A stretch of 64,000 bases of DNA from an uncultured Leptospirales bacterium (GTDB lineage Bacteria > Spirochaetota > UBA4802 > JAKQUI01), in assembly GCA_964652955.1 (NCBI GenBank), contig CAZZCF010000006.1, forward strand, positions 10,460 to 74,459, in the 5' to 3' direction. This document shows positions 6,084-58,336 of the stretch, piece by piece (positions within the stretch are counted from its first letter, which is position 1; the number at the start of each line of letters is the position of its first letter). The notes beneath the pieces were generated by a model. The model was not told the DNA's origin, made no database searches, and saw only the letters and a program-made list of their open reading frames with translations. Position numbers and translations under genes: made by a program.

Positions 6084-6818
6084 TTACTTCTTTCCGACCG
6101 TTGCGAGATACAGGGTAAACTGTTCCTCGCCGTCGAGGGTGAGAATACGGTTGAGCTCATCGTCCATGAAAGCAGCAATGGCGCAGACACCGGCGTTTAT
6201 CATCTCGGCAGCGAGATAGAGATTCTGACACACGTGGCCGCAATCGAGAAAGAGATAGCGGAAGCCCCGCTGGCTGTATCGCCATGTCATGCGATAGCTT
6301 ACCGCTGTCCAGAGAAATGTTACGGCACTTCGCAGGACCATATCCTGTCCGAGGCATCCTTCAGTTATCTGAGAGGCAATCCGGTTATCGCGTCGTATCT
6401 CGAGAAGTTTGTGATCGAGGGGGAGATAGCGGTAGAGTCCTTCGGGAAGGTCCTGAATTCTGTTCACCAGCAGGTAGGTTTCGAGAGCATGTCTGGCGCC
6501 CGCAGAGGGTACCGTCCTCAGTGTCGTCAGAGCGGGAATGATTTCCTTAACCCCCTGGGTGCACCAGAGAAGAAGTGAGAGCTCCTCCAGGCTGAGCGGG
6601 GTCGTCGAATAGCTTCGAACGCTCCTTCGGTTTTCAATGGCCTTTCGCAGAGACATATCGGGAATATCAAGACGATCCGGTTCAGGGAGATCGATGACCG
6701 TCCCCTTGTCGGAAGGGAGTACAGGGGGTGGTTGTGCAACTCCCTTCATTTGATCCGATCGCTCGAGATACTGAAATTTTGTTCTCTGAATAAAATCAAA
6801 GCCTATTCCTTTTCCCAT
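6084..6818 (-). CDS. SagB/ThcOx-type dehydrogenase (nitroreductase superfamily)
   Basis: Nitroreductase-like motifs (RRSVRSY ... PSAGARHALETYLLV) characteristic of SagB-type dehydrogenase domain proteins. Confidence 0.65.
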   Translation of the reverse strand: MGKGIGFDFIQRTKFQYLERSDQMKGVAQPPPVLPSDKGTVIDLPEPDRLDIPDMSLRKAIENRRSVRSYSTTPLSLEELSLLLWCTQGVKEIIPALTTLRTVPSAGARHALETYLLVNRIQDLPEGLYRYLPLDHKLLEIRRDNRIASQITEGCLGQDMVLRSAVTFLWTAVSYRMTWRYSQRGFRYLFLDCGHVCQNLYLAAEMINAGVCAIAAFMDDELNRILTLDGEEQFTLYLATVGKK

Positions 6819-6833
6819 GGCACTTCACCCGCT

Positions 6834-8912
6834 TTATTGTGGAACGAAGTCTATGTTCATCATCTCAAGATCAACGGAAACAAGCCGAACGCGGATCCGA
6901 TCGCCGAGACGGTATCGCCTCCCGCGATTTTTCCCGACTATTGCAAATTCCTCTTCCTGAATAAAATAGTAATCGTCAGAAAGCAGTCTCAGGGGAACCA
7001 TTCCCTCGATAGGTTTGTCGATGAGCGTCACAAAGAATCCAGCGGAGGAGAGACCGCTCACGATTACGTCGAAGAGCTCATCGACCCGGTGGAGCATTAT
7101 TCTGCACGACTTGAGTTTTATCAGATCGCGCTCCGCCCGCTGGGCAATTCGCTCCATTTCCGATGAACTCGTGCCGATATCACTTAGATTTTCTGCAGTA
7201 TAGGGTGGAGCGGCATTATCGATGAGGCTCTTCAGGCATCGGTGCACGATGAGATCCGGATATCTCCGGATAGGCGACGTAAAGTGGGTATAGTCACTGA
7301 AACCGAGTCCGAAGTGCCCCAGCGGCTTCTCGCCGTAGTATGCCTGCATCATCGATTTCAGGATGATGAAGTTCGTTACCTGTTCGTACTCTTTCTCCGC
7401 AACACTCTCGATTACTCTCTGAAGTGCGAGGCCGGTTTTCACTCCCTTCGGAAAACGTATTCCCAGGGACCAGAGGAATTTCTTCAGCGCAAGTAGTTTT
7501 TCATCGCTCATATCCTCGTGAATCCGATAGAGCGTCGGGATTCCCTTCTCTTTTAAGAGTCTGGAGACGGTCTCGTTTGCGCTGAGCATGAACTCTTCGA
7601 TGATGGTGTGGCTTTTATACCGCGGCAGTAACCGCATATCGATCTCATTTCCGGAGTTGATAATTTCCACCTCCGGGAGGTTGAGCTCGATACGTCCCTG
7701 CGACAACCGATTCTCTTTGAGGATGAGTGCGAGCTCGTGCATTCTGCGGAGAAGTACGCTGAGCTCATCCGTACCGGTATCGATTATCTCATGCGCGTGC
7801 CGATACGTGAGCCTTCGGTCAACGGTGATGACTCCCCGCGAGTATCCGAAATCGAGAAGCGTTCCCGTTGTGTCGAAGGTCATTGCAACGGTAACGGTGA
7901 ACCGATCCTCTCCTTTCTGCAGAGAGCAGAGTTTATTCGAGAGGATCTCCGGGAGCATGGGGATGACCCTTTCCCCGAGATAGAAACTTGTCCCCCGCTT
8001 CTGTGCTTCCCGGTCAAGGGGGCTGTCCTTTTTGACGAAGTGTGACACATCAGCTATGTGGACATACAGATGGAATCTGTCAGGGGCGCTTTCCAGCGAG
8101 AGGGCATCGTCGAAGTCCTTCGCGTCTTCACCGTCGATAGTGATGGTGTAAAGGGATCGGTAATCCCTTCTCTTCTCCGTGCCGGAAGCCTTCCACCGCC
8201 CGGTGATGCCTTTCAGCTCCTTATACTGCTGATGGCGTCCGGGGATGGCGTGCTTGATGGCAATGCGCTCACTGTCATAGGTATCATCACTGATGGAAAA
8301 GGTTTTCGCAATAGTGCATTCCTGTTGGTGTTGAAGAAAACCGCCGGTGAGGGTAATGAGAGCGAGCTGTCCGGGCGCGATTTCCCTTTTGCGGTGTGTG
8401 TCCCGTCGGGAGCAGACCTCAATTGTGCCAGGCGTATCGATTATTCTCAAAAAGATTCGATCTTCGCTCAACCGCTCAATCCGGGCAACGTATCGCTCCT
8501 TGCGTCTGGTAATGATACTGGTAACGCGCCCGTAAAAAGAGCCGCTCCTGAAATCGATAAGTTCGGCCTGAACGTGGTCGCCGTCATGAGCGATCTGAAT
8601 GTTCTCTTCCGGTATAATGACCGCAGGAGCATCGGGTATTTCCAGAATCCCATTCCCTCTCCTGTTGATGCGGATGATGCCCTCCAGAGTGAAGGCGGGA
8701 TTTTTGGCGTAGCGCTTCTTATCTTTCCGTATAAGACCGATTGCGTGGAGTGCCGGGAGAATGGCTCCGATCCGCTGCGCTTCTCTTTTTTGTGTTTCCT
8801 TCTTTTTCTGTTTTCCCCGCTTCGGTGTGAGCGCATCAGCAATAGTGTAAGAAGAAAAGGGTTTAGACGTCTGTTTTATGTAAGAGATAATTCTCTTTGA
8901 CGATATGGACAT
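6834..8912 (-). CDS. rnr: ribonuclease R (VacB/RNase II family 3'-5' exoribonuclease)
   Basis: 692 aa; RNB catalytic domain motifs (DDALS ... FTSPIRRYPDLIVHR) and C-terminal S1 domain; lysine-rich N-terminus. Confidence 0.85.
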   Translation of the reverse strand: MSISSKRIISYIKQTSKPFSSYTIADALTPKRGKQKKKETQKREAQRIGAILPALHAIGLIRKDKKRYAKNPAFTLEGIIRINRRGNGILEIPDAPAVIIPEENIQIAHDGDHVQAELIDFRSGSFYGRVTSIITRRKERYVARIERLSEDRIFLRIIDTPGTIEVCSRRDTHRKREIAPGQLALITLTGGFLQHQQECTIAKTFSISDDTYDSERIAIKHAIPGRHQQYKELKGITGRWKASGTEKRRDYRSLYTITIDGEDAKDFDDALSLESAPDRFHLYVHIADVSHFVKKDSPLDREAQKRGTSFYLGERVIPMLPEILSNKLCSLQKGEDRFTVTVAMTFDTTGTLLDFGYSRGVITVDRRLTYRHAHEIIDTGTDELSVLLRRMHELALILKENRLSQGRIELNLPEVEIINSGNEIDMRLLPRYKSHTIIEEFMLSANETVSRLLKEKGIPTLYRIHEDMSDEKLLALKKFLWSLGIRFPKGVKTGLALQRVIESVAEKEYEQVTNFIILKSMMQAYYGEKPLGHFGLGFSDYTHFTSPIRRYPDLIVHRCLKSLIDNAAPPYTAENLSDIGTSSSEMERIAQRAERDLIKLKSCRIMLHRVDELFDVIVSGLSSAGFFVTLIDKPIEGMVPLRLLSDDYYFIQEEEFAIVGKNRGRRYRLGDRIRVRLVSVDLEMMNIDFVPQ

Positions 8913-8943
8913 TTAATATATTTTTTTCGAGCAAATGCTGCTA

Positions 8944-9324
8944 TCAGCTTTTGGTATCGGTCTCGGAATCGGTTTTTGTATCGGTTTTGGATTCGGTCTT
9001 TGATTCCGTTTGAACATTACCGGATGGTTGCGCTTTCCTGATGGCGGCAATTTCCTCCCGTTTCACATCGATATTTTTTTTGATCTCTTCAATACTCGCT
9101 GATTTTTCGCTCAGGAACTGATCGCTCACATTGAGGGTGTTCTCTCCCTGATCGATCTTTTTCTTCACGTACTCGCCAATCTCCATATATACCTTCTCGA
9201 TACTGCTTTCAAATCGCTTAATATCCATACTGAGCTTGGCTATCTTGGCATATTCTTCAGTTTTATTGACGAGCTTCTCACTGTATTTGAAGAGTGATTC
9301 ACCGGCATCTTTAAAAAATCCCAT
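8944..9324 (-). CDS. hypothetical coiled-coil protein with a low-complexity C-terminal tail (TESKTESKTDTKTDSETDTKS)
   Basis: 126-aa ORF; tail encoded by a 12-bp periodic DNA repeat at 8944-9010. Confidence 0.4.
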   Translation of the reverse strand: MGFFKDAGESLFKYSEKLVNKTEEYAKIAKLSMDIKRFESSIEKVYMEIGEYVKKKIDQGENTLNVSDQFLSEKSASIEEIKKNIDVKREEIAAIRKAQPSGNVQTESKTESKTDTKTDSETDTKS

Positions 9325-10067
9325 ATTTGTTCCTCCTTATTTTAAGTGATGGATTTCTGTTGCATTGCATGATCTATGTACAATAGCACGCAAATCCCCC
9401 GTGTTGCACCTTCCCATCAGAGTAATGATCTCTTTCTCCCGGGTCACCTCTCGTGTTCTCTCTATCACTGTCCCTCAATACGGAGTGATATACTATAATG
9501 CAATTACAATTTTGAACAATCACGGTTACTACCAATATAGCAGCTATTGATTGTTATGGGAATAATTATTTGCTCTTTTTCAAATTATTTATCACCGGTT
9601 GCGGAATATTCCGTTCCGACGGGAAGGTCAATGAAAGCCGTTAGCGGCATCTGTTTCGGAAGTGAGCCGTGATCACATATCGTGCAATGCATCGGCGAGA
9701 TTATCTGGATGAAACTGATGGAGGCATCTTTCCTTCGCGGCCGGGTATGAGGTGACGATGACCTGCACTCAAAATCCGGTTTTTTTACGGTAAGCGGTGT
9801 GCCTGACGGCGGAGAGAACAGACGATGCTCAAAATATATGATGCCGGACCCGCTGAGAGGCGCTCACCGCACTTTTTATGCTGAGCGTGCTGTTACGAAG
9901 CGTTTTTTGATCTCCCGATGAAATAATTTGAAATTCTTGTTTACGCCGTTTATAATTAATATTATATTTTTAATAATATTTGGCGAGTTGAGAATAGAAA
10001 AATGGACATATAATTATATATTTATATATTTAACAGTTTTTATATAAAATTTTAGCTATTCGGAGTT

Positions 10068-10871
10068 GTGGTGATTATCGTTGGCGAAAAAATAAATACC
10101 AGCAGAAAGGAAATTGCAGAAGCTGTTGAACGCGGGGACAGTACCTCTATTGCTGAAGTGGCGCGAGCTCAGGCAGATGCCGGTGCTCATTATATTGACG
10201 TGAATGCCGGTACTTTTCTGGAACGGGAAGTTGAATTATTATCATGGCTGGTGGAGATCGTGCAGTCTGCTGTTGATCTCCCCCTGTGCATTGACAGCCC
10301 GAATCCGAAAGCGCTCGGCAGGGCAATGAAAATCCACCGGGGGGTTCCTCTCATCAATTCCATCTCCCTGGAGAAGGAGCGGTACGAGAGCCTTTTACCG
10401 GTTATCACTTCACAGCCATGTAAAGTGGTTGCTCTCTGTATGGCGCGGGTCTCAATGCCGACAACGTCAGGGGAGCGCATCGAAGTGGCATCCGAACTCA
10501 TTGCACGGCTCACCGGTGCAGGTATTGATCCGGAAGATATTTTTGTGGATCCGCTGGTTCAGCCGGTATCGGTGGATGTGAATATGGGTTCAGCAGTACT
10601 GAATGCAATAGCCGGCATCATGAAAAACTTTTCAGGGGTACATACTATCTGTGGGCTTTCGAATGTTTCGTTCGGTTTGCCGGCGCGACGTCTGATAAAT
10701 CGAAATTTTTTAACACTGGCAGTCCAATCCGGTCTCACAGCTGCAATCTGTGATCCCACCGACAAACGGCTCATGGCAGATCTGCTTGCGACAGAAATGC
10801 TGCTGGGTTCGGATGAATACTGTGCAAACTTCATAGATGCTTATCAGCAGGGGAGAATAGATCACGATTGA
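10068..10871 (+). CDS. pterin-binding-domain methyltransferase (methylcorrinoid:tetrahydrofolate methyltransferase, MtgA/MtrH-like)
   Basis: Starts V-I-I-V-G-E-K-I-N (GERIN-type pterin-binding N-terminus); 267 aa; first gene of the corrinoid cluster; GTG start. Confidence 0.7.
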   Translation: MVIIVGEKINTSRKEIAEAVERGDSTSIAEVARAQADAGAHYIDVNAGTFLEREVELLSWLVEIVQSAVDLPLCIDSPNPKALGRAMKIHRGVPLINSISLEKERYESLLPVITSQPCKVVALCMARVSMPTTSGERIEVASELIARLTGAGIDPEDIFVDPLVQPVSVDVNMGSAVLNAIAGIMKNFSGVHTICGLSNVSFGLPARRLINRNFLTLAVQSGLTAAICDPTDKRLMADLLATEMLLGSDEYCANFIDAYQQGRIDHD

Positions 10872-10906
10872 AAGCAGTTCAATCATGGAAGAGAGGTACA
10901 CTGCTC

Positions 10907-11542
10907 ATGAATTATGAACCGTTATTTGAAGCAGTAATAAAAGGAGATATTGAAACCGCGAAGGGGGAAACGGGTAAAGCTCTTGAATCGGGTGATGACC
11001 CGCAGAGCATACTTGATGATGTATTAATTGCCGCAATGGATGTTGTCGGTGATAAGTACGCCAAAGGACTCTTCTTTGTCCCTCAGATGCTTCGCTCCGC
11101 GAAAGCGATGCAGGGATGCGTTGAGTTGCTGAAACCGCATTTTCTGGGAAGCGCTGTCGTCACGAAGGGGACGATCGTAATAGGTGCGGTCAAAGGGGAC
11201 CTGCACGACATTGGCAAGAACCTGGTGGCAATGATGCTGGAAGGTGCTGGATTTACTATCGTTGACCTTGGCGTCGACATCGCCCCCGAAAGATTCGTCA
11301 GTGCCGTACAGGAAGAGAATGCAGATATAGTGGGGATGTCGGCGTTGCTCTCGACGACGATGTCCGCAATGCCTGAGACCGTACAGATGCTCTCGGAAAA
11401 AGGGATCAGAGATAAGGTCAAGGTGATGATCGGTGGTGCGCCGGTGACGAGAAAGTATGCTGCCGATATAGGTGCTGATTCCTATGCACCTGATGCCGGT
11501 TCTGCGGTAATAGAGGCGAAGAAGCTCCTTCATATTGAATGA
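10907..11542 (+). CDS. corrinoid (cobalamin-binding) protein
   Basis: B12-binding DxHxxG motif (GDLHDIGKNLV) and Rossmann-like B12-binding domain with N-terminal helical cap; ATG 10907 with RBS. Confidence 0.8.
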   Translation: MNYEPLFEAVIKGDIETAKGETGKALESGDDPQSILDDVLIAAMDVVGDKYAKGLFFVPQMLRSAKAMQGCVELLKPHFLGSAVVTKGTIVIGAVKGDLHDIGKNLVAMMLEGAGFTIVDLGVDIAPERFVSAVQEENADIVGMSALLSTTMSAMPETVQMLSEKGIRDKVKVMIGGAPVTRKYAADIGADSYAPDAGSAVIEAKKLLHIE

Positions 11543-11616
11543 TTAAGGCGTTGTTCGGAAGCTTACAGGGGGCATGATGCGGCTCCCTGAAATACTGTTT
11601 CAGAAAGAAGAGCACT

Positions 11617-13026
11617 ATGTTATTGGGTGATGATAAAATCGAACAGATAGATCAGGCGGGACGGCACATACTTGCCCATGCGGGAGTCAGGCTTCTCAGT
11701 GAAGGTGTTCTGAAAAGATTGCACGAAGCCGGGGCTTCTGTCGATCTGAACGAAGGCATCGTACGGTTCACGGGTGAATGGCTTGATGAGATTGTCGGGA
11801 ATGCACCCCGGATGTTCACCCTGTATTCTCGCGACGGGATGCATGACTTGAATATCGGTTCGGGAAGTGTTTATTTTGGCAACGGTGGACGTGTTTTCCG
11901 AATACTGGATATGAACACGGGTGGATTTCGATTGACCGTTCTCAAGGATGTTGCACACACAGCACGACTGGTAAATCTTCTTGAGAACATCCATTTTTAC
12001 ATTATTGCCTGTCAGGCACATGATATTTCCTCTGAGTTCTATCATTTGAATGATTTTTTTCAGGCCTTTCGTAATACGAGCAAACATGTCATGGGAGGGT
12101 GTGATAGCCTGCAGGGTGTCAGGCAGATGTGGAATCTCGCCTGTGCCGTTGCGGGGGATGAGAAGCGTTTACAGTCTGAGCCTTTTGTCTCGGTAATCAC
12201 TAATCCTATCAGCCCTCTCACCCTGGATAATAATACCCTTGAAATTCTCGAATTCTGTGCGCTCAAAGGGATTCCGGTAACCTGTGCTCCGGCTCCGATG
12301 GCAGGTGCAACATCGCCCGTTACTCTGGCAGGCACGCTTGCCCAGATGCATGCAGAGTCGTTGGCGGGGGTGGCCCTCACACAGGTCTTCCGCCCGGGGG
12401 CACCGGTGCTGTATGGTGCTGTCCCCACAGCGATGGATATGAGAACAATGGATCTCACCTTCGGCTCTGTGGAAACTGCTATGATGAATGTGAGTGCCGT
12501 TCAATTAGCCAAGCGCTATCATGTGCCGATTTATGCTTCGGCAGGAATGACCGATGCCAAGACGCCGGATATTCAGTCAGGCTTTGAAAAGGGGGTCTCT
12601 CTCCTTTTAGTCGGAATGGCAGGTGCGGAGTTCATACATCTTGCGGCAGGAATGCTGGATTCAGGCAACTCGATATCATATGAACAGTTTATCATCGACA
12701 ATGAAATACTTGGCATGGTCTACCGGGTTTTGAGAGGTATTGAGGTGAACGAGAATACGCTTGCTGTTGAATGTGTGGAGAAACTCGGTCCCGGCGGCAA
12801 CTATATGATGGAGGATCATACGGTCGAACATATGTTTGATGAATTCTTCTTTCCCTCTCTCTCTGTCAGAATGAATTTTGATTTATGGAAAGAGCGGAAT
12901 GAACCGACACCACTGAGCAGCGCTCGTGAGCTTGCTCGCGAATTATTACAGAACAATGAACCCGTTTTATCCCCCGATGAGATAGTGAGAATCGAAAAAC
13001 AATTTCCGGACATTGTGAATGTGTAA
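11617..13026 (+). CDS. MttB-superfamily methyltransferase (trimethylamine methyltransferase family, non-pyrrolysine member; quaternary amine:corrinoid methyltransferase)
   Basis: 469 aa with MttB-family length and N-terminal pattern; continuous ORF with no in-frame TAG, so a non-Pyl type like MtgB/MtcB/MtpB. Confidence 0.8.
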   Translation: MLLGDDKIEQIDQAGRHILAHAGVRLLSEGVLKRLHEAGASVDLNEGIVRFTGEWLDEIVGNAPRMFTLYSRDGMHDLNIGSGSVYFGNGGRVFRILDMNTGGFRLTVLKDVAHTARLVNLLENIHFYIIACQAHDISSEFYHLNDFFQAFRNTSKHVMGGCDSLQGVRQMWNLACAVAGDEKRLQSEPFVSVITNPISPLTLDNNTLEILEFCALKGIPVTCAPAPMAGATSPVTLAGTLAQMHAESLAGVALTQVFRPGAPVLYGAVPTAMDMRTMDLTFGSVETAMMNVSAVQLAKRYHVPIYASAGMTDAKTPDIQSGFEKGVSLLLVGMAGAEFIHLAAGMLDSGNSISYEQFIIDNEILGMVYRVLRGIEVNENTLAVECVEKLGPGGNYMMEDHTVEHMFDEFFFPSLSVRMNFDLWKERNEPTPLSSARELARELLQNNEPVLSPDEIVRIEKQFPDIVNV

Positions 13027-13062
13027 TTCCGGTGTCTTTCGTTCGTTTGAGAACGCGGTGTA

Positions 13063-15003
13063 ATGAAAAAACCGAAGAAGAATAAAAAAGGGAAAAAGAA
13101 GAGACAGTATCGTACTCCGCCGTCTGTCAGGAAAAAAGAGAAAAAATTCGTATGGCTGAACGTTCTGCCTGACAATATCTGGGTAAAGGCAAAACGGGGG
13201 GAAACGGTACTGGAAGCCCTGCGGGATACCGATCTGGATCTGGAAGGTGATTGCGGGGGTCTCGGAAAATGCGGGAAGTGCAAGATCAGGGTTATCACAT
13301 CTATCGGAGCTCCTTCCCCCGAGGAATCTGAGCTCTTGAAAAAGGAAGAGCTGGAAGCAGGTGTTCGACTTGCGTGTCGAATCGTGCTCAAAAAGAATCT
13401 GGTCATTCATACGGAATTGGAGGATAGGGAAGTTGAGTTTTTCCAAATCCTCAAGCATGGCGATCTCCCTGAAATGCGGCGTGATCCTCTCCTCGAGTCA
13501 GTTTCACTGACGCTCCCGTCACCGAGTTTGGAGAATCCTTCTTCCGATTTCCAGCGAATTCGGAAAGCACTCGGTCCCGAGTACCGAGACCTGAGTATAA
13601 CGTATAACTGTCTTTCATCGATTCATGATGAACTCCGTACAAATGATTATGCAGGTACCGCTATTATACATAAGAACTGTCTGCTCGACTGGCACTACAG
13701 AAAGAGTACGGGCGGTACATTTGGCATTATCTTTGATATGGGAACGAGCACCCTGGTTGGCAAGCTGATAAACCTGGAGGAGGGCGATGAAGTTGCTGTC
13801 GCATCCCGGTATAATTCTCAGAGAAAATACGGCAGCAATATCATCAGCCGCATACAGCATGTAAAGGAGAATCGGGATGGCCTTTCGCGCATGCAGGCAC
13901 TTCTTGTGAGAGATTTGAATATTATTATACGGAATCTCGTTGAAGCTGCGGATGTGATGCCGGAAGACATTTTTATATCGGTTGCTGCTGGAAATACCAC
14001 CATGCAGCATTTCCTCCTGGGTATCGATCCCCGGAGCATTGCTGAAACTCCCTTTACACCGATCGTGACCGAGGGAGTCACCTTTAATGCTCGAGATATC
14101 GGATTAAACCTCAATCGCAATGCAATCCTGTATATTATGCCTGCCAAGTCGGGGTATATCGGTGGGGATCTCATCGGATTTATTCTCGCCTCGAAAGCAG
14201 CGGAACAGGAAGAGAAGATAGTATTGGGTATGGATTTCGGAACAAACGGTGAGATATTCCTTGGCAATAAGAGAAGAATTATCACCTGCTCGGCTGCTGC
14301 CGGACCGGCTCTTGAGGGAGAGAAGATTACTCATGGAATGATCGGGAAAGCCGGTGCCATTGAGCGGTTCCATTTTCATGAAAATAACCTGGCCTATCAC
14401 GTGATCGGAAATATCAAACCGAAAGGGCTCTGCGGCAGCGGTTTGGTCGATATCGTCGCGATACTCCTGCACCACGGTTTTATTGATACGGAGGGTCTTC
14501 TCGGGCCGATTTCCGAGGGGGGGATGAACGATTTCATGGAGTCTCGTTTGATAAGCAACCCGGAGAGCGGGGTATATGATTTCCTGATTGCTTCTCCTGA
14601 TGAAAGTTTTACGGGAGAGCCGATATATTTGCAGCAGACCGATATCCGCGAGTTGCAACTTGCGAAGAGCGCTATCGCGGCCGGCACTAACATACTGCTC
14701 AGAACAATGGGATTGGAAATGACGGATGTCGATACGATATACCTGGCGGGAGCCCTGGGAAACTACGTGCACCCCTACAGTGCCATGAGAATCGGTTTGA
14801 TCCCGATATCTGATCCTGAGAAGATCTCATCCCTGGGAAACGCAGCTTCGATCGGTGCCAATATGGTGCTCCTTTCGAAATATTACTGGGAGAGGGCAAC
14901 TGAAATTACCGATTCAATAGAAAATGTGGAGTTGTCGAATCATCCCGATTTTTTTGATCTCTTCATTTCTGAAATGGATTTTCACGATCTGAATCTGTGG
15001 TAG
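13063..15003 (+). CDS. corrinoid reductive activase (RamA/RACo family: N-terminal 2Fe-2S ferredoxin domain plus ASKHA ATPase)
   Basis: Ferredoxin Cys cluster (CGGLGKCGKCKI ... C); large ASKHA-like ATPase body; 646 aa; unusual lysine-rich N-terminal extension. Confidence 0.8.
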   Translation: MKKPKKNKKGKKKRQYRTPPSVRKKEKKFVWLNVLPDNIWVKAKRGETVLEALRDTDLDLEGDCGGLGKCGKCKIRVITSIGAPSPEESELLKKEELEAGVRLACRIVLKKNLVIHTELEDREVEFFQILKHGDLPEMRRDPLLESVSLTLPSPSLENPSSDFQRIRKALGPEYRDLSITYNCLSSIHDELRTNDYAGTAIIHKNCLLDWHYRKSTGGTFGIIFDMGTSTLVGKLINLEEGDEVAVASRYNSQRKYGSNIISRIQHVKENRDGLSRMQALLVRDLNIIIRNLVEAADVMPEDIFISVAAGNTTMQHFLLGIDPRSIAETPFTPIVTEGVTFNARDIGLNLNRNAILYIMPAKSGYIGGDLIGFILASKAAEQEEKIVLGMDFGTNGEIFLGNKRRIITCSAAAGPALEGEKITHGMIGKAGAIERFHFHENNLAYHVIGNIKPKGLCGSGLVDIVAILLHHGFIDTEGLLGPISEGGMNDFMESRLISNPESGVYDFLIASPDESFTGEPIYLQQTDIRELQLAKSAIAAGTNILLRTMGLEMTDVDTIYLAGALGNYVHPYSAMRIGLIPISDPEKISSLGNAASIGANMVLLSKYYWERATEITDSIENVELSNHPDFFDLFISEMDFHDLNLW

Positions 15004-15146
15004 CTCCCGGAACGTGAGAACGGATTGACGGCGTCGCCTGAATCAGATGATATTTTTCAGAGATGCTTCCGCTTCGGTTCGGATGAATGTATCCGAAATA
15101 TATCTCTCTCTTCGAATGCCGTTGACAGGAGATGGCCAGTCGCCTG

Positions 15147-15902
15147 CTATGCTCCTCCGCTGATCTCCTGCTTCCTGTCCCTTCCGCTGTGAGAATGTGA
15201 AAGATGACGGTGAATTTCGTTTTCTATTTCTATTCTCTTTCGTATTCGCTCGGGAATTGCAGAGATGATGTTGAGAGGGGTGCGGAGGGTGGGGTGGGTG
15301 AATTGGAGTCGCCATGAGTGAAGACAGATTGCGTGATCGTCGAGCTGTTCGAGGGAACCATATTTCATGTCACCAACAACGGGCATGTGAACTGACGCGA
15401 GCTGAGCGCGAATCTGATGTTTTCTGCCGGTATACATCCTGACCAGGAGGAGTGCATATTTCTCGTTTCTCGATAGCGGCAGGTAGCTCAGAGCTGCCTC
15501 CTGAGCCCGAGGGTCCGTTCCGTTGACGATAACCGTTTTATCATGCTGCCGCGCAACCATCTGCTTGAGCTCGTGCCAGCCTTCGCTTTGCATCATCGAT
15601 TCGGTGTTTCCCGTATTGTGCACAAGGGCGAGATACAGCTTCAGCACGTTCCGTGTTTTGAACTCCCGGTGTAATCGCCGTGCTGCCTTCGTCGTTCTCG
15701 CAAACACCACCGCACCGGAAACCGGTTTGTCGAGGCGGTGCACCAGGCCGAGGTATACATTGCCGGGTTTTCCGTAGGCATTTTTAATATACGTTCTGAC
15801 CTGATCGAGCAGCGATTCCTCCCCGCTGAAGTCCCCCTGTATCAGCACGCCTGTCGGTTTCTCGACCGCTATGATGTGGTTGTCTTCGTAGAGAATGTTC
15901 AT
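15147..15902 (-). CDS. RluA-family 23S rRNA/tRNA pseudouridine synthase
   Basis: HRLDKPVSG catalytic motif; 251 aa. Confidence 0.8.
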   Translation of the reverse strand: MNILYEDNHIIAVEKPTGVLIQGDFSGEESLLDQVRTYIKNAYGKPGNVYLGLVHRLDKPVSGAVVFARTTKAARRLHREFKTRNVLKLYLALVHNTGNTESMMQSEGWHELKQMVARQHDKTVIVNGTDPRAQEAALSYLPLSRNEKYALLLVRMYTGRKHQIRAQLASVHMPVVGDMKYGSLEQLDDHAICLHSWRLQFTHPTLRTPLNIISAIPERIRKRIEIENEIHRHLSHSHSGRDRKQEISGGA

Positions 15903-16214
15903 TGCTATTCAATTATATTTTTTAAATCTTTGAAGATTGATCTGATATTACCCTTTGTAGAAAGATGAACTGTCTTTGACATCTGCCGCTTTCAGGTGCA
16001 ATGCGTGTACTGCGGATCCCCCTTGCTGAATATGCAACAGGGCAGGGTGCTCATAGAAAATCATTGAATTAGATGCATACTATAAAGTACAGTATTTTCT
16101 GTGCACAGGAAAGGCCTTTTATGTAAAATACGCAACAGTGTACTATTTGTTTCACGCCCTGGTATCTTGAGGTACAGAGATGCTACTGTTCTTTTTCTCC
16201 GCAGGAGGCTCAAC

Positions 16215-16712
16215 ATGCACAATGCTCGGTACTGGATTGACAGACTTGGACTTGAGCGACATCCGGAGGGAGGCTATTTCAGGGAAACCTATCGGTCCGG
16301 GGAGGTTGTCAGCAGGGAATGTCTCCCCGGACGGTATTCCGGTGATCGCTCATTTTCAACAGCCATTTACTTTCTCTTAACGGGTGATGATGTCTCACGC
16401 CTTCACCGAATCAGGTCTGATGAAATCTGGCATTTCTACTCAGGCTCTTCGCTGATCATACACATAATAAACGGGGAGGGGGCCTGTACGACGATTACGC
16501 TCGGCAATAGCATCGAAGGGGGTGAATGCTTCCAGGCTGTGGTGCAGGCCGGATGCTGGTTCGGTGCGACGGTCGCCGATCGCTCCTCTTATTCCCTGGT
16601 CGGCTGTACCGTTTCGCCCGGCTTTGATTTCGATGATTTTGAGCTTGGTAAAAAAGAGGTTCTCATGAAGCAGTACCCGCAGCATGGCTCTCTAATCGAT
16701 AGGTTGTGTTGA
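16215..16712 (+). CDS. cupin-domain protein (DUF985 / YML079-like)
   Basis: ATG 16215 preceded by GCAGGAGG; motifs RLGLERHPEGGYFRETYRS and a cupin beta-barrel pattern. Confidence 0.6.
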   Translation: MHNARYWIDRLGLERHPEGGYFRETYRSGEVVSRECLPGRYSGDRSFSTAIYFLLTGDDVSRLHRIRSDEIWHFYSGSSLIIHIINGEGACTTITLGNSIEGGECFQAVVQAGCWFGATVADRSSYSLVGCTVSPGFDFDDFELGKKEVLMKQYPQHGSLIDRLC

Positions 16713-16750
16713 GCGTCTCCCGGATGGCAGTCGGTGTTCCCCGGATTGCC

Positions 16751-17269
16751 CTATTGAGCGGTGGAGCAGAGAAGCTCTTCTATGGTATCGAAATCGGATT
16801 CCGGGCACTGTTCTGGAGAAGCCTCCCCTTTGCTCACGGCAGCGGCGAAAGCCATGCAGCTGGGATATCCGCACTTCTTGCAGTTTGTCTGGGGTAATCG
16901 CTTGAAGATTTCGAGAACGGGAATGTAGGTATGAGTGGTATAATTCGGTTCAAGGGATTCCATTCGCGACTCAAGGTCATTGAGAAATTCAATGAGGCGC
17001 TGAACGAAACGGAGAGCCTCCTCGCGCTCGAGAAAGGGGGCTGCGGCAGCGTGATCCGGATAGAGAGCGCAACCGATGCCATCGAGGTTGAATTTAATAT
17101 AGTGCGGATTCTCAAAGTACAGGGCATCGTCTATCCGAGCGTTGATATAGGGGAAGAGATGGCTGACATCACTGTCCAGCTTGAAGCGAGCAACCCTGAA
17201 TGCCACATTGGGATGGCAGTCCGGCGTTTTTAAGGTAAAATCTGAATAGTCGTTAATCATTTTCCTCAC
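16751..17269 (-). CDS. small protein with a C-terminal putative Fe-S cluster domain (PF04060-like, as found at the N-termini of RnfB and CdhD/AcsC)
   Basis: C-terminal CKKCGYPSCMAFAAAV ... CPE motif; 172 aa. Confidence 0.45.
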   Translation of the reverse strand: MRKMINDYSDFTLKTPDCHPNVAFRVARFKLDSDVSHLFPYINARIDDALYFENPHYIKFNLDGIGCALYPDHAAAAPFLEREEALRFVQRLIEFLNDLESRMESLEPNYTTHTYIPVLEIFKRLPQTNCKKCGYPSCMAFAAAVSKGEASPEQCPESDFDTIEELLCSTAQ

Positions 17270-17504
17270 CTCGTATCATGGTTGAGGTTGATGACTGATG
17301 CTTCGTCGATCTCTTTTCAGGATATGCTTATATCCTGTGCAAATTATTTCAGGGGAAGATATCCTGTCAAGGAAAACTCGGATCGGGAGCGGGAGAACAC
17401 ACTCGTCTGCTGCGTTTACTGCACCGGTATACCGCGATGCCGTAAAAGCGTTCCTGTTTTTTACGTTACCGCCAATAGTATCATTACAACTATTCAGCGT
17501 GCTC

Positions 17505-18419
17505 TTACTTGATGGCATACACGACCATCGAGCTGGTGAGGGAGAAGGCGCGGTACCTGATCTTGCTGAGCAGATGATAGAGGGTGATTCGCAGCCACTT
17601 TCGATAATCCAGTATCGAGGTGAAATTGTATCGTGATTTCAGGAGTTTTGGAAGCAGGCCAAACTCCACCGGATGAAAGAACTTTATTTTACTGAAACCG
17701 GTTTTTTCAAGCAGCATCGCAATATTGTATTTATTGAAATATGAAAAATGTCCGGGCAGAAAATACCGGTATCGCTTGCTGAGTATTCTCGCCTGAAGTC
17801 CGTTCATGTTGGCAGTCTGAATCACGAGCAGTCCGCCCTCGGTGAGCAGATCGTAGCATTCGGAAACCGCTCGGGCAGGTTCAGGTATGTGTTCCAGCAC
17901 CTCTATCATGGTAATAACTGAAAAGAAGTTGTGCCGAAAGGGGTGATCCTCGAGCGTGCCGATATGGATATTGTTCTTGCCGAATGCAGCCTGTGCTCCG
18001 GTCCCGGCGTAAGGTGATATATCGATGCCGAAGGGGGTATAGTATCGGGATAGGGTCTTCAAAAAGCCGCCAAAAGCGCAGCCGATATCCAGGACATTCC
18101 CCGCTTTCACGAAGGATCGGATTTTTTCTACCCTTTTTTCCCATACGTACTGTGAATGCCTTTCCGCCTTACGCTCATCGTAATAGGCATACTCCGCATG
18201 TCCGGTATAATAGCCCTCGCCGTAGAGGGCGGCGCGTGTTGAATCCATCAGGGGAGGATTCATAAAAATGAAGCCGCAGCTGAGGCACCGCTCTGTCCTG
18301 AAGGGGGGATCGTATCTTTTGATAAGGTGATGTTCAACGAGCTCTGTGCTCGAACAGAGGGGACAGCGGGTGAGTGGAGCGTCGTAGACGGTTCTGTCAG
18401 AGAATTCGAGATTTTCCAT
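17505..18419 (-). CDS. class I SAM-dependent methyltransferase with an N-terminal zinc ribbon
   Basis: CPLCSS ... CLSCG zinc ribbon followed by SAM-binding motif I (VLDIGCAFGGFL). Confidence 0.65.
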   Translation of the reverse strand: MENLEFSDRTVYDAPLTRCPLCSSTELVEHHLIKRYDPPFRTERCLSCGFIFMNPPLMDSTRAALYGEGYYTGHAEYAYYDERKAERHSQYVWEKRVEKIRSFVKAGNVLDIGCAFGGFLKTLSRYYTPFGIDISPYAGTGAQAAFGKNNIHIGTLEDHPFRHNFFSVITMIEVLEHIPEPARAVSECYDLLTEGGLLVIQTANMNGLQARILSKRYRYFLPGHFSYFNKYNIAMLLEKTGFSKIKFFHPVEFGLLPKLLKSRYNFTSILDYRKWLRITLYHLLSKIRYRAFSLTSSMVVYAIK

Positions 18420-20602: not shown

Positions 20603-21133
20603 ATGCTGTGCGAGAAATGTAAAAAGAGGGATGCGACCGTTCATCTTACCGAGGTGATAAAGAATGTAAAAACGGAGATCCATCTCTGTGAATGGTGTGC
20701 CAAGGATTTCGGATTGAATTCGAATCTATCGAATTTCTCACTTTCAGTTCCGGATATGTTGACCTTTCTCGATATAGAGGAGGTCGGCGATGTCGAAGAC
20801 TGCCGGGTATGTTCAACCTGTGGTATGACCTATATGGACTACAAGAAGGTTGGCAAGCTCGGCTGTTCAGACTGTTACCATTACCTGAAACCGGCATTGG
20901 ACTCGGTTATATGCGGATTTCATGGAGAGGAGAAGCATGTGGGGAAGGTCCCCCTGAAGTATGTTGACGTTGAATCGCCGAAGCGGGTCCTCCTGGCGAA
21001 AGATGAAAACCGAAAAGGGAAGGAACACAATACCGGTGAGCTGAGAAAGCGGCTCGATGCCGCTGTAAAGGATGAGCGATACGAAGACGCTGCACGGTTC
21101 CGAGATGCTTTACGGGAGATTGAGAGGGAGTAG
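20603..21133 (+). CDS. mcsA: McsA-like protein arginine kinase activator (zinc fingers plus UVR domain)
   Basis: N-terminal CxxC pairs (CEKCKK ... CEWC; CRVCSTCG ... CSDCY) and C-terminal UVR motif (ERYEDAARFRDALREIE); directly upstream of mcsB. Confidence 0.7.
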   Translation: MLCEKCKKRDATVHLTEVIKNVKTEIHLCEWCAKDFGLNSNLSNFSLSVPDMLTFLDIEEVGDVEDCRVCSTCGMTYMDYKKVGKLGCSDCYHYLKPALDSVICGFHGEEKHVGKVPLKYVDVESPKRVLLAKDENRKGKEHNTGELRKRLDAAVKDERYEDAARFRDALREIERE

Positions 21134-21140
21134 CGCGTTT

Positions 21141-22181
21141 ATGTTTGAGAATATGATAGAGAATCAGGGATTTTGGTCTCAGACGGGTCCCTATTCCGAT
21201 GTAGTCCTTTCGACGAGAGTTCGCATCGCACGAAACATGCCCGGCTTCCTCTTTCCCAATAAGATGGATCGTCGAAGTGTCGAACTGATTCATTCCATAG
21301 GAAAGCGATTTGTCGAGGATTCGGAGCTAAGTAGCGATCTGAGCTTTATTGACCTGCATGTGCTGGATGATAATGACAAGCGGTTCTTGCGGGAGCGGAA
21401 CTTAATCACCTATGAGATGGAAAAATCGAAAGATAGCGCAATTGTACTTGAAGGTGATGAGCAGTTTTCGATACTTATCAATGAAGAGGATCATTTCCGT
21501 ATACAGGTCATAAAACCCGGTTTCCAGATAATGGATGCGTATCGTCTTGCGGACAGAGTTGATGATGATTTGAATCGCTTTGCGTCCTATGCGTATTCTG
21601 ATGACCTCGGTTATCTGACAGCGTGTCCCTCCAACGTGGGAACCGGTTTGCGCGTCTCCTCAATGGTTCATCTGCCCATGCTCACCCTGCTCAACAGGAT
21701 ACCGGAAACGGGTAAGCTCATTCGCGATATGGGCTTTGTGTTGCGAGGGACCTCCGGTGACGATTATAAGACAGTTGGCTGCATGTATCTCATATCAAAT
21801 CGAATCTCGCTTGGCATTTCAGAGATAGACATCATCGAAGAGCTCGATGTAGTGACCTCGAAGGTCGTGGAATTGGAGAGCGAGCTCAGAGACAGCTATG
21901 TATCGGAGCAGGGGAATCACCTTGACGATAGAGTCTGGCGATCCTATGGGATTCTTCAATACTCCAGAAAGATGCATTTCCTTGAAGCGATGGAGCATCT
22001 CTCACATGTCAGACTGGGCATCATACTTTCAGTGGTTAAGAATATATCGTTATTTAAAATTAATGATCTCATGGTTAACATACAGCAATCGCATCTGCAA
22101 AAGATTGCAAATAAGGTTTTCGATGATACCACGGAGTGTGATATTTTCAGAGCTGAATATCTGAGAAAGCAGCTCAAGTGA
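21141..22181 (+). CDS. mcsB: protein arginine kinase McsB (ATP:guanido phosphotransferase)
   Basis: Phosphagen-kinase active-site signature CPSNVGTGLR; ATG 21141 lies 8 nt after the mcsA stop. Confidence 0.85.
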   Translation: MFENMIENQGFWSQTGPYSDVVLSTRVRIARNMPGFLFPNKMDRRSVELIHSIGKRFVEDSELSSDLSFIDLHVLDDNDKRFLRERNLITYEMEKSKDSAIVLEGDEQFSILINEEDHFRIQVIKPGFQIMDAYRLADRVDDDLNRFASYAYSDDLGYLTACPSNVGTGLRVSSMVHLPMLTLLNRIPETGKLIRDMGFVLRGTSGDDYKTVGCMYLISNRISLGISEIDIIEELDVVTSKVVELESELRDSYVSEQGNHLDDRVWRSYGILQYSRKMHFLEAMEHLSHVRLGIILSVVKNISLFKINDLMVNIQQSHLQKIANKVFDDTTECDIFRAEYLRKQLK

Positions 22182-22252
22182 ATGGTGTTCTCCAGAGACA
22201 CCCGTTGAATCGGCACCTGCACCGGTGCCATATAAGTTGAGGAGCGTTTCCT

Positions 22253-24733
22253 ATGTACGATTTCACAAAGCGATCACGAAAGGTTCTTGAGGTTTATGCT
22301 CAATCTGAAGGGAGACGGCTGAACGCCGATTCGCTCGGGCCCGAGCATATTCTTCTTGCCCTTTTAAAGGATACGGATTCAGTTGCTTCACGAATTCTGA
22401 AAAATCTCGGCGTGAATTTTGATGTCCTGAAGAAGAATATCGAGCAGGCGATACGCAAATCGGGCACGACCATTATACTCGGGAATATCCCTATCAGCGC
22501 CCGCTATAACAGGATAATTGAGATTGCACGGGATGAATCCCGGAAACTCAAGAATAATTATATCGGAACCGAGCATCTCCTCCTCGCCATTTTCAGGGAG
22601 GGAACCTGCGCGAGTATTGATAGTCTTATTAAAACAGGTATCGACTACAATGTCATCAGGGGTGAGGTGCTGAAGATTCTGGGGATTCACTCCAGTCTGC
22701 TCTCCGGCAAGAAGATTGAGGAGAAGAGCAAAACACCCACCCTCGATGAATTTGCTCAGGATCTCACGCAACTGGCAATAGAAAATAAGCTCGATCCGGT
22801 CATCGGGAGAAAAAAAGAAATTGATAGAGTTATACGGATACTCTCCCGAAAGACCAAGAACAATCCCGTTCTCATCGGTGAAGCCGGCGTTGGCAAGACA
22901 GCCATTGTAGAGGGGCTGGCGCAGAGAATCGTCGAAAAACAGGTGCCGGAACCGCTCCATAACAGGCGAGTACTTGCTCTTGACATGGCGGCGATTGTTG
23001 CCGGAACAAAGTATCGCGGTGAGTTCGAGGAGCGGCTCAAGCGTATCATGAAGGAGATCAAGGGGAGCAACAATGTTATCATCTTCATCGACGAATTGCA
23101 TACTATTATCGGCGCCGGAGCGGCAGAGGGTGCCATCGATGCTGCAAATATCTTAAAACCGGCACTTGCCCGCGGTGAGCTCCAGTGTATTGGCGCTACC
23201 ACGTTGAATGAATACAAAATGCATGTTGAAAAGGATGCTGCTCTTGAGAGAAGATTTCAGAGTGTTCAGGTTGATGAGCCAACTATCGATGAGGCGAATG
23301 AGATTATCATGGGCCTCCGGTACCGGTACGAGGAGCATCACAAGGTGAAATTTACTGATGAAGCGCTCCTGAAGGCGGTATCGCTCTCGTCCCGATATAT
23401 AACCGACAGGTATCTCCCCGATAAGGCAATCGATATCATCGATGAAGCTGGCTCAAAAGCACGTCTTGAGCACTGCGATAGGCCGGTGGACATTATCGGC
23501 CTCGAGGAAGAGATTCAGGTTCTCAATAACAGGAAAAATGATCTGGTGAAGTCTCAGGAATATGAGCAGGCAGCTGCGGTGCGTGATCTCATCAATGAGA
23601 AGAAAGTTCTCCTCACGAAGAAGATGAGTGACTGGCAGCAGAAGATCAATGAGTATCAGATCGTTGTTGATGCCGATCAGACAGCGACTATTGTCGCACA
23701 GTGGACGGGCATCCCGGTCGAGCGGCTTGAGGAGTCTGAAGCTGAGAAGCTGCTTCGAATCGAGGATGAGCTTCACAAGAGAATCATTGGCCAGGATGAT
23801 GCAATTACCGTTGTCAGCAAGGCGATACGGAGGTCGAGAACCGGTTTGCGGAGAGCGAACCGGCCAATCGGTTCCTTTATCTTTCTCGGTCCCACCGGTG
23901 TTGGCAAAACGGAATTGGCGAAGGCGCTCGCGGATTTTCTCTTCGATAATGATAATGCCCTTGTCAGGCTCGATATGTCTGAATATATGGAACGGCACTC
24001 GGTATCAAAGCTCGTCGGTGCTCCCCCGGGATATGTCGGATATGAGGAGGGGGGACAGCTTACCGAAAAGATTAAGCGGAAGCCCTTCTCGGTGATACTC
24101 TTTGATGAAATTGAGAAGGCGCATCCCGATGTGTTCAATATTCTACTGCAGGTTTTGGAAGAGGGAGAGCTGACCGATAATTTTGGTTCACATATCAGTT
24201 TCAGGGATACCATTGTCATCATGACATCGAATGTCGGGAACCGGGAGTTCCAGAGAATGGGCAAGATGGGATTCTCCTCAACCGATACGGTCAGCAATGA
24301 TGAGCGGGAGAAGGTTTTTGACGAGATGAAGGGTCTTTTCAGCCCCGAATTTTTAAATCGCGTTGATGAGGTCGTTTATTTCCATAAGTTGAACAGGAAA
24401 CACATACGCGAGATTGTGAACCTCATGCTTCAGGAGGTCAATGAACGCGTTGTCGAGATTGGCCTTGAGCTTGAGTATTCCAGCAGGGTGAGGAACTTTC
24501 TGGCCAATAAGGGCTTCGATGATAAATTTGGTGCTCGATATCTCCGGCGGGCCATACAGAGCGAAATTGAGGATAAGCTCGCCCTTGAAATGCTTGAAGG
24601 CAAATGCAGAGATTCGAAAAAGCTCTTTGTCGGGATGAAAGGCAAGTCACTCTACTTTAAACCGCTTGAGGAGAAGGGGGAAATGGAGTGTGATGATCTC
24701 ACCTCCAAGGAAGAGGTCAATATTGTCAAGTAG
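22253..24733 (+). CDS. clpC: ATP-dependent Clp protease ATP-binding subunit ClpC (two AAA+ modules, Clp_N repeats, UVR linker)
   Basis: Clp_N repeats at the N-terminus; Walker A GEAGVGKT and GPTGVGKT; UVR-like middle region; 826 aa. Confidence 0.9.
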
Positions 24734-41123: not shown

Positions 41124-41178
41124 TACAATTTCTCCGGTGTATCGAAAATGCGGTAAAATGTTTATAGGAGCAGGAAGT

Positions 41179-46015: not shown

Positions 46016-46024
46016 TTCTTTCTC

Positions 46025-58307: not shown

Positions 58308-58336
58308 TTGATTGTGCACAGGTGATTTATTGTGAT

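Follow-up and report, generated by a model that had tools for sequence, protein, structure and literature searches.

A probably functional, P1-less corrinoid methyltransferase operon with a non-canonical MttB homologue in an uncultured spirochaete

A reduced corrinoid methyltransferase operon in a Spirochaetota genome

Within a 64,000-nucleotide stretch of contig CAZZCF010000006.1 from an uncultured Leptospirales bacterium (hereafter the window), we identified four intact, co-oriented genes on the plus strand, spanning 10068-15003, that encode a pterin-binding methyltransferase, a corrinoid protein, an MttB homologue and a RACo-type activase. We consider it likely that these genes constitute a functional, horizontally acquired operon for corrinoid-dependent methyl transfer, derived from a larger cassette by loss of a second MttB paralogue (P1) and of a DUF1638 gene. 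The retained MttB homologue (P2) is assigned by its sequence to a tight, uncharacterised clade of the MttB superfamily. The operon is of a known kind and ordinary in itself, and an earlier paper already mentions MttB genes in metagenome-assembled genomes (MAGs) of sediment Spirochaetota, in a speculative mercury-methylation context.

The four consecutive, co-oriented genes reported by the initial annotation were borne out by the open reading frames (ORFs) and their domain matches. As that annotation held, the substrate:corrinoid methyltransferase (MT1), the corrinoid protein, the methylcorrinoid:tetrahydrofolate methyltransferase (MT2) and the activase make up a biochemically sufficient set; the word "complete" applies in this minimal sense only, since the operon is a reduced six-gene cassette without P1 and DUF1638. 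The proposed flagellated, spirochaete-like host also agrees with the data: FliI relatives (70-75% identity) and RNase R relatives (47-60%) with a name were all from Spirochaetes/Spirochaetota, and a fliF-G-H-I-J block lies at 28.9-34.6 kb. Gene content thus supports assignment to a flagellated, spirochaete-like member of the Spirochaetota.

The first gene product (267 residues) matched PF00809 (Pterin_bind) at 78 bits and passed NF005719, the model for methyl-tetrahydrofolate (methyl-THF):corrinoid methyltransferases (335.7 bits; cutoff 259). Its closest solved relative was a D. hafniense methyltransferase (4o0q/4o1e/4o1f; E = 5e-63); MeTr/AcsE and the folate domains of MetH came next. The pterin motif GLSNVSFG (SNVSFG) is intact in the translation. 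The predicted function is therefore that of a pterin-binding, TIM-barrel methylcorrinoid:THF methyltransferase, in line with the initial annotation. AcsE proper, considered as its identity, was rejected (NF040758, 144 bits against a cutoff of 370).

Two starts are possible for the corrinoid gene (10868 and 10907); the ATG at 10907, which follows a GAGAGG ribosome-binding site (RBS), is favoured by gene callers. The protein combines a B12-binding_2 cap with a Rossmann B12-binding domain that bears DLHDIG, the DxHxxG His-on motif named by the initial annotation. All specific equivalog models scored below their cutoffs, including the best NCBIfam model, MtgC_2 (220 bits, cutoff 370), and TIGR02370 (188, cutoff 215). 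The best PDB matches were 1y80 (E = 2e-55) and MttC (7xcn_M; E = 6e-42), and the predicted protein is assigned to the methyltransferase-cognate MtgC/MttC type.

The operon probably derives from a six-gene cassette of sediment bacteria

The closest homologues of P2 (58-72% identity) all came from MAGs or single-amplified genomes of Desulfobacterota (Desulfobacterales, Syntrophobacterales and Desulfomonilaceae), Dehalococcoidia and Nitrospirota (Thermodesulfovibrionia); none was from Spirochaetota. A survey of 82 loci by tblastn and clustering revealed a conserved gene order, in which P2 is embedded in about 80 genomes of these three groups: MtgA-like enzyme, corrinoid protein, MttB-P1, MttB-P2, DUF1638 and RACo. 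MttB was present in 81 of these loci, DUF1638 in 67, RACo in 60, and MtgA and the corrinoid protein in 59 each. Among 70 related loci, DUF1638 was found in 64 and is probably fused in five more. The P1 paralogue has about 483 residues, is about 31% identical to P2 and carries the signature S, D/E, W, A, H.

The window genes for the MtgA-like enzyme, corrinoid protein, P2 and RACo are orthologous to the cassette genes (59-72% identity; 59-71% for the MtgA-like enzyme and 47-63% for RACo in comparisons with their individual cassette counterparts), stand in the same order and include the same polybasic RACo tail. The window differs from the cassette of Desulfobacterota, Dehalococcoidia and Nitrospirota MAGs in its Spirochaetota host, in a recent deletion of P1 and in having no DUF1638. 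Across the 82 loci no neighbour was conserved beyond the six core genes; occasional neighbours were OpuA-type ATP-binding cassette (ABC) transporters (4 loci), homocysteine S-methyltransferase (3) and 2-oxoacid:ferredoxin oxidoreductase (5). Our literature search found no paper describing the six-gene cassette.

DUF1638 is genetically required, together with a RamA-like protein, for B12 reactivation in Phaeobacter (PMC5764234, preprint), and the two are also linked in B12 reactivation in a further study (PMC12478193). In Dehalococcoidia, P2 and DUF1638 also occur fused in one protein of 682 residues (P0084; locus L028, 10001-12050), and in locus L084 DUF1638 is apparently fused upstream of RACo. 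Such fusions suggest a physical association of DUF1638 with the methyltransferase/activase complex.

A second, different cluster accompanies the main cassette in some loci, upstream or downstream of it. This cluster comprises an MttB homologue (38-43% identical to P2, with Met at the pyrrolysine position), an MtgA-like protein (37%), another MttB homologue (about 30%) and a corrinoid protein (48%), and was observed in loci L008, L011, L014-L016, L019, L025, L032, L038, L071, L084 and L087. It is frequently parted from the cassette by an AsnB-like amidotransferase (19 loci) and a Methyltransf_25-like protein of about 425 residues (13 loci). MttB paralogues thus seem to come in pairs repeatedly.

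Probable horizontal acquisition, loss of P1 and purifying selection

To the four window genes, the nearest homologues were Desulfobacterota sequences (72, 71, 70 and 63% identity), and window P2 nested in a Desulfobacterales subclade of Desulfobacterota in a neighbour-joining (NJ) tree that carries no support values. A sister lineage, represented by locus L089 (about 88% nucleotide identity), holds MtgA-like, corrinoid protein, P1, P2 and RACo genes at the same site, between a 126-residue gene/rnr and rluA, and its P1 is 80% identical to Desulfobacterales P1. This nesting, combined with the Desulfobacterales-like P1 of L089, supports the arrival of the genes as one block from a Desulfobacterota-like donor and their later reduction. 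The cluster is inserted between rluA and rnr. The more distant Spirochaetota loci L090 and L091, whose RNase R is 60% and 54% identical, have no methyltransferase cluster with their rluA, small gene and rnr, and L090 additionally has an aminotransferase at the site; this empty site, like the Spirochaetota affinity of the host's housekeeping genes, also speaks for transfer. No compositional signature of transfer was detected: the operon has a G+C fraction of 0.48-0.49, like the rest of the window.

Nucleotide alignment (blastn) placed window 9903-11544 on 6465-8109 and window 11591-17538 on 9815-15770 of the reverse complement of L089, with P1 at 8337-9788 of the latter. The window thus has 46 nucleotides where L089 has about 1.7 kb with P1. 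Because L089 retains P1 at this site, we attribute the difference to deletion in the window lineage; the deletion, of about 1.66 kb, is clean and preserves the upstream region and RBS of P2. The identical P1-less arrangement, the same allele, was recovered in six independent metagenome assemblies and is therefore not an assembly artefact. No second MttB homologue was found anywhere in the 64 kb. DUF1638 is missing from both window and L089: tblastn with 12 DUF1638 probes found none in the window, where the gap between P2 and RACo measures 36 nucleotides.

Nonsynonymous-to-synonymous rate ratios (dN/dS) against L089 were 0.18 for the MtgA-like gene, 0.06 for the corrinoid protein, 0.16 for P2 and 0.10 for RACo, compared with 0.15 for the flanking RNase R and 0.12 for rluA; being pairwise, these values average both lineages and leave room for recent relaxation in the window lineage. 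Tajima-type relative-rate tests showed no significant acceleration in the window lineage. These comparisons indicate that the four remaining genes are under purifying selection and are not decaying.

A contrasting explanation is that the operon is a decaying remnant, in which loss of DUF1638 and then of P1 after transfer left useless genes that are now being lost. This scenario would account for the window being the sole locus without P1 among about 82 and one of very few without DUF1638, for the absence of a dedicated transporter and for the slightly higher number of lineage-specific P2 changes in the window than in its sister. We nevertheless judge it improbable: all four ORFs are intact and keep the invariant residues of the clade, their dN/dS equals that of the housekeeping flanks without significant rate differences, and the deletion spared the upstream region and RBS of P2 in an allele seen in six assemblies.

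The interpretation as a functional, acquired and reduced operon must still be weighed against several observations. P1, universally paired with P2 elsewhere, is missing, and so is DUF1638, which B12 reactivation in Phaeobacter requires and which at least 64 of 70 related cassettes carry; if P1 and P2 are an obligate pair, their separation means that P2 alone could be inactive. Of the unique changes in P2, 9-12 fall to the window and 3-8 to the sister lineage (p = 0.05-0.37), and the averaging inherent in pairwise dN/dS adds to this concern. The window's cluster contains no transporter or regulator gene. To these are added the limits of the tree and of the structural model, namely the lack of support values, the choice of reference sequences and the low-confidence active-site loops described below. 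On balance, we regard the operon as genuine and probably functional.

P2 lacks the substrate anchor of characterised non-pyrrolysine enzymes

P2 matched PF06253 (MTTB) over residues 2-454 of 469 in an uninterrupted frame (356.4 bits; cutoff 25), and scored 417.7 bits, below the cutoff of 525, with TIGR02369, the equivalog model of pyrrolysine (Pyl)-dependent MttB. Its identity to D. hafniense MtgB (DhMtgB) is 32%, to MttB of M. barkeri 31% and to 4yyc, a protein from S. meliloti, 28%. Where Pyl would sit, P2 has Met311, encoded by ATG at 12547-12549, and the frame contains no amber codon, as the initial annotation had noted; an Rfam scan of the 64-kb window found no tRNA-Pyl.

An AlphaFold2 (AF2) model built on a 117-sequence alignment reached a predicted local distance difference test (pLDDT) score of 84.5 and a predicted template-modelling (pTM) score of 0.89; an earlier model from 15 sequences (pLDDT 57.9) was discarded. 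Foldseek returned 2qne/9yce, 7xcl and 4yyc as top matches at TM 0.74-0.76, with MtmB next at 0.49. The model confirms the predicted TIM-barrel fold of MttB/MtgB, and at TM values of about 0.75 to MtgB, MttB and 4yyc alike it does not discriminate among them. In this monomer model, the active-site loops 312-317 and 344-353 are of low confidence.

Mutagenesis and a ligand-bound structure from 2026 established that Y97, R312, H348 and F356 of MtgB bind glycine betaine, that the R312L substitution abolishes activity, and that R312 is conserved in MtcB, MtpB, MtyB and MthB, all of which act on substrates with an acidic (carboxylate or phosphate) group (PMC13080624); the conservation in these four enzymes is taken from that paper and not from our own alignment. 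The corresponding residues of window P2 are G91, Y306, L342 (with H341 adjacent) and G350, a mapping on which phmmer, MAFFT (163 sequences) and hhalign agree. These replacements are kept in 73-76 of the 76 members of the P2 clade, which overall shows G in 76/76, R in 76/76, Y in 73/76 and H in 66/76, with V, L, I or M at the Pyl position. P2 thus lacks the R312 that is retained in every characterised non-Pyl enzyme.

Relative to MttB, for which active-site residues were taken from PMC9842639, P2 keeps G110 (G91), Y329 (Y306) and the xDAKxPD motif, and changes Pyl334 to Met311, Y364 to H341 and T111 to R92. By alignment, the active-site motif of P2 is similar to that of Pyl-MttB, with Met where Pyl would be. 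The P2 clade fell on the MttB side of the NJ tree, apart from MtgB and 4yyc; the reference members of both tree and alignment were the PDB sequences of MtgB, MttB and 4yyc, and E. limosum MtcB, MtpB, MtyB and MthB were left out. In a full search with a hidden Markov model against 1.84 billion representatives, clustering at 50% identity merged the P2 clade into one of over 2,250 superfamily clusters. At the R312 position, the 141 nearest clusters had Y (31), R (20), F (18), W (13) and D (13), and a position without Arg is therefore common in the unexplored part of the superfamily.

These features bear on the possible substrate. The initial annotation held that the substrate cannot be read from sequence, yet the sequence is informative: the substrates it listed for non-Pyl homologues (glycine betaine, proline betaine, carnitine and gamma-butyrobetaine) are disfavoured by the lost MtgB residues if bound in the conventional manner. 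MtgB-style binding of glycine betaine is unlikely because R312 and the aromatic pair are missing, and the replacement of all four residues speaks against conventional binding of betaine, carnitine, gamma-butyrobetaine or phosphocholine alike. P2 may instead take another compound or bind its substrate differently, for example through the invariant R92, because the R312 anchor is unavailable.

A demethylase for glycine betaine, proline betaine, carnitine or gamma-butyrobetaine, equivalent to MtgBCA or to MtpB/MtcB/MtyB with MtqC/MtqA/RamQ, as the list of the initial annotation implies, is accordingly an unlikely identity for the system. Such an identity would fit the environment, as glycine betaine is the dominant osmolyte of the saline sediments hosting such genomes, and would also fit the best-scoring solved relative of P2, DhMtgB (E = 3e-69; 32% identity), the ranking of MtgC_2 as top NCBIfam model of the corrinoid protein, and the OpuA-type (betaine-family) ABC transporters beside the cassette in four related loci. 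It conflicts with the replacement of Y97 by G, R312 by Y, H348 by L and F356 by G, conserved across the 76 clade members, when R312L kills MtgB and R312 is conserved in MtcB, MtpB, MtyB and MthB (PMC13080624). The MtgC_2 score, moreover, is far under its cutoff, and the P2 clade does not group with MtgB and 4yyc.

A Pyl-independent trimethylamine (TMA) methyltransferase would be consistent with the residues shared with Pyl-MttB (G91 for G110, Y306 for Y329 and the DAKxPD motif) and with the grouping of the P2 clade with M. barkeri MttB (MbMttB) rather than MtgB. We regard this identity as highly improbable, given that Pyl334 is replaced by Met (Val or Leu in other clade members), Y364 by His and T111 by Arg, and that TIGR02369 scored below its cutoff. 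Pyl is held necessary to turn TMA into a quaternary adduct before methyl transfer (PMC9842639), and P2, which has none, is unlikely to act on a tertiary amine such as TMA.

A RACo-type activase with a conserved polybasic tail

The fourth product (646 residues) has the Pfam architecture Fer2, RACo_linker, Raco_middle and RACo_C_ter, with a C-terminal ASKHA domain, and all four cysteines for the [2Fe-2S] cluster are intact (C64-x5-C70-x2-C73...C105). The best PDB match was the solved RACo 3zyy (E = 1.3e-96), its residues 10-617 aligning with residues 36-638 of the activase. The RamA model TIGR04270 gave 143.5 bits against a cutoff of 500, with the ASKHA region alone aligning, and the C-terminal 2x[4Fe-4S] domain of RamA is absent from the activase, whose iron-sulfur domain is the N-terminal [2Fe-2S] one. 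Of the earlier label "RamA/RACo reductive activase", we therefore retain a predicted activase of RACo type and drop RamA. The domain order is that of C. hydrogenoformans RACo (PDB 3zyy, 4c1n), [2Fe-2S]-linker-middle-ASKHA, with end-to-end alignment; the window protein is nonetheless not the activase (AcsV) of the corrinoid/iron-sulfur protein CoFeSP (NF040756, 399 bits against a cutoff of 800).

The initial annotation had also pointed to an odd lysine-rich N-terminal extension. The extension (MKKPKKNKKGKKKRQYRTPPSVRKKEKK) is present as described, starting at the ATG at 13063 and carrying a net charge of +15 over 30 residues, but it is not odd and marks the RACo subfamily of this cassette: of 72 cassette RACos, 69 have at least 8 K/R (median 11) within the 35 residues that precede the conserved WLNVLP motif. 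This tail of about 30 residues is absent from 3zyy. The partner proteins of RACo are acidic (pI 4.8-5.0), and an electrostatic docking role of the tail toward them is plausible from composition.

In several Desulfobacterales, the cassette RACo begins with a response-regulator receiver domain, and the same polybasic segment links this domain to the [2Fe-2S] domain (L087, 12094-14406; also L009, L011, L012, L015-L018 and L022). Such receiver-RACo fusions suggest phosphorylation-controlled corrinoid reactivation.

Proposed mechanism and relation to known systems

By analogy with characterised systems, RACo would use ATP and its [2Fe-2S] cluster to reduce the inactive Co(II) corrinoid protein to Co(I). 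The TIM barrel of P2 would bind a pre-activated methyl-onium compound, in all likelihood a quaternary amine or something similar of the osmolyte type. Co(I) would attack one of its methyl groups to give the methyl-Co(III) corrinoid protein, and the MtgA-like enzyme would then hand the methyl group to THF. A substrate of quaternary-amine type is supported by the OpuA-type transporter genes adjoining the cassette in four related loci. In terms of ancestry, the six-gene cassette, which anaerobic bacteria of sediments carry and which is common among sulfate-reducers there and in Dehalococcoidia, would have entered the Spirochaetota lineage between rluA and rnr without DUF1638, after which the window lineage would have lost P1.

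D. hafniense MtgB/MtgC/MtgA (PDB 2qne, 9yce) follows the same three-component logic, with an MttB-superfamily MT1, a DxHxxG corrinoid protein and a pterin MT2, plus an ATP-dependent activase. P2 shares the TIM barrel of MtgB (TM 0.75) and 32% of its sequence, whereas the four glycine-betaine residues are replaced in the window and the clade is separate. E. limosum MtpB/MtcB/MtyB/MthB with MtqC (MthC), MtqA (MthA) and RamQ likewise pass methyl groups from a non-Pyl MT1 via a corrinoid protein to THF, with an ATP-dependent activase. These enzymes keep R312 and use acidic quaternary amines, whereas the window enzyme has Tyr at this position; an MthK-like kinase and an EamA transporter, unlike in E. 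limosum, are not near the window operon. M. barkeri MttB/MttC/RamA (PDB 7xcl, 7xcn) shares superfamily, fold and G110/Y329/xDAKxPD with P2, and MttC matches the window corrinoid protein. It differs in the three substituted active-site residues, in its acceptor, coenzyme M via MtbA as opposed to THF via a pterin MT2, and in using RamA in place of a RACo-type activase.

No gene of THF or Wood-Ljungdahl metabolism (fhs, folD, metF or carbon monoxide dehydrogenase/acetyl-CoA synthase) was found in the 64-kb window. Methyl-THF could be destined for oxidation, acetogenesis or biosynthesis, and the operon by itself demonstrates neither the acetogen-like C1 metabolism that the initial annotation read from it nor that the spirochaete is an acetogen.

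The components could alternatively serve an anabolic or bidirectional role, with the MtgA-like enzyme, corrinoid protein and RACo forming part of a split cobalamin-dependent network of methionine-synthase type, as in Phaeobacter and Ruegeria, and the MttB homologue acting as an auxiliary methyl donor in place of an energy-yielding, acetogen-like pathway. The MT2 reaction is reversible, and the lack of THF-oxidation and Wood-Ljungdahl genes in the window is in keeping with such a role. A gene with a homocysteine S-methyltransferase domain follows the cassette in three Desulfobacterales, and split MetH systems share these parts along with a RamA-like protein and DUF1638 (PMC5764234, PMC12478193). 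We rate this possibility as clearly improbable, however, because characterised MttB-superfamily systems are catabolic, no homocysteine-binding (PF02574) gene was found in the window, and the S-methyltransferase neighbour occurs in 3 of 82 loci only.

Beyond the likely interpretation as a functional, reduced cassette, we put forward a more far-reaching one tentatively and consider it unlikely: P2 and its constant partner P1 would represent a new MttB substrate class, acting on a methyl-onium compound other than an R312-anchored acidic quaternary amine. Candidates would include choline-type compounds, tetramethylammonium, compounds related to trimethylamine N-oxide, sulfonium compounds, osmolytes of the N-methyl-heterocycle type, or a betaine bound through the invariant R92. 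P1 and P2 would then share a single corrinoid protein and demethylate either in succession or as alternatives, while the conserved polybasic RACo tail, in some cases under a receiver domain, would help the acidic methyltransferase complex to dock or be regulated. If true, the spirochaete would amount to a natural "P2-only" experiment, evidence that P2 can work by itself.

Upstream region and other genes in the window

The coordinates of the operon features are collected in Table 1. A GGAG RBS lies 6 nucleotides 5' of the GTG start of the first gene. The best of the promoter-like matches, TTGAAA-17-TATAAT at 9928-9956, agrees with the sigma-70 consensus at 11 of 12 positions and is a consensus match only. 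The 740-nucleotide intergenic region upstream of the operon contains a GC-richer insertion of 306 nucleotides (9597-9902) that is absent from L089; it was unique among the compared sequences, with no Rfam match and no folding signal (z = +0.57 and +0.40). An Rfam gathering scan of the whole window for riboswitches and other RNAs returned tRNA-Pro only, and when 9300-10100 was scanned by E-value, the sole match, to FMN, was at chance level (16.5 bits against a gathering score of 66).

Table 1. Features of the methyltransferase operon and its upstream region, in window coordinates
Feature	Coordinates	Strand	Basis
Promoter-like AT-rich region	9928..10050	+	7 clustered sigma-70-like matches; consensus matching only
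Predicted MtgA-like methylcorrinoid:tetrahydrofolate methyltransferase (MT2)	10068..10871	+	PF00809, NF005719
Predicted corrinoid (cobalamin-binding) protein, MtgC/MttC-like, 211 residues	10907..11542	+	PF02607, PF02310, DLHDIG
46-nucleotide spacer, deletion scar of P1	11545..11590	+	blastn of window versus L089
Predicted MttB-superfamily methyltransferase (MT1), P2 clade, non-Pyl, 469 residues	11617..13026	+	PF06253
Predicted RACo-type ATP-dependent reductive activase, 646 residues	13063..15003	+	Fer2, RACo_linker, Raco_middle, RACo_C_ter
Polybasic N-terminal tail of RACo, residues 1-30	13063..13152	+	Net charge +15

Elsewhere in the window, a second corrinoid methyltransferase module is encoded at 58594-60411 (plus strand), within the region 52085-63161, as a 605-residue fusion of URO-D (MtaA/CmuA-like), B12-binding_2 and B12-binding domains. 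Its neighbours encode an acyl-CoA ligase, enoyl-CoA hydratases, a 3-hydroxyacyl-CoA dehydrogenase, a FabK-like reductase, a thioesterase and a hydrolase, and the fusion could catalyse an O-demethylase-type step in an acyl-CoA degradation cluster. On the minus strand at 16751-17269, 1.7 kb 3' of RACo, lies a gene for a 172-residue protein with a C-terminal PF04060 "FeS" domain, as found in RnfB and at the N-terminus of AcsC/CdhE, the large CFeSP subunit. This gene is present in the window and L089, absent at the equivalent position in L090, and not part of the Desulfobacterota cassette.

An APC-family permease gene (weak match to an ethanolamine-permease model) overlaps a glycerophosphodiester phosphodiesterase gene at 39705-41985 (plus strand), and the pair, which lies 25 kb from the MttB operon, might give access to choline or ethanolamine head groups. 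At 43294-48781 (minus strand), ORFs of 918 and 421 residues without Pfam matches flank the gene (44552-46015) for a radical SAM/SPASM protein whose N-terminal domain is PqqD-like, an arrangement that looks like a peptide-maturase-type locus. A further operon at 20603-24733 (plus strand), conserved in L090, encodes McsA-like (UVR), McsB (ATP:guanido phosphotransferase) and ClpC-like proteins; operons of this kind are best known from Firmicutes.

Significance

In anoxic sediments and guts, MttB-superfamily systems control where methyl groups from osmolytes end up and compete for them with methanogens and with producers of TMA. Six substrate specificities are known against thousands of sequence clusters in the superfamily. 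The locus described here points to a widespread cassette, wholly of uncultured lineages, in Desulfobacterota, Dehalococcoidia and Nitrospirota. Because its enzymes are without the anchor common to all characterised non-Pyl members, the P2 cassette is a rational next target for substrate discovery.

What the locus adds to an otherwise familiar type of operon is an uncharacterised clade with a non-canonical active site, an inter-phylum transfer, a natural loss of P1 and a conserved polybasic RACo tail. The window and L089 offer a natural comparison of P2 alone with P1 plus P2, and the locus, if our interpretation holds, documents the recent inter-phylum transfer and streamlining of a module for B12-dependent methylotrophy.

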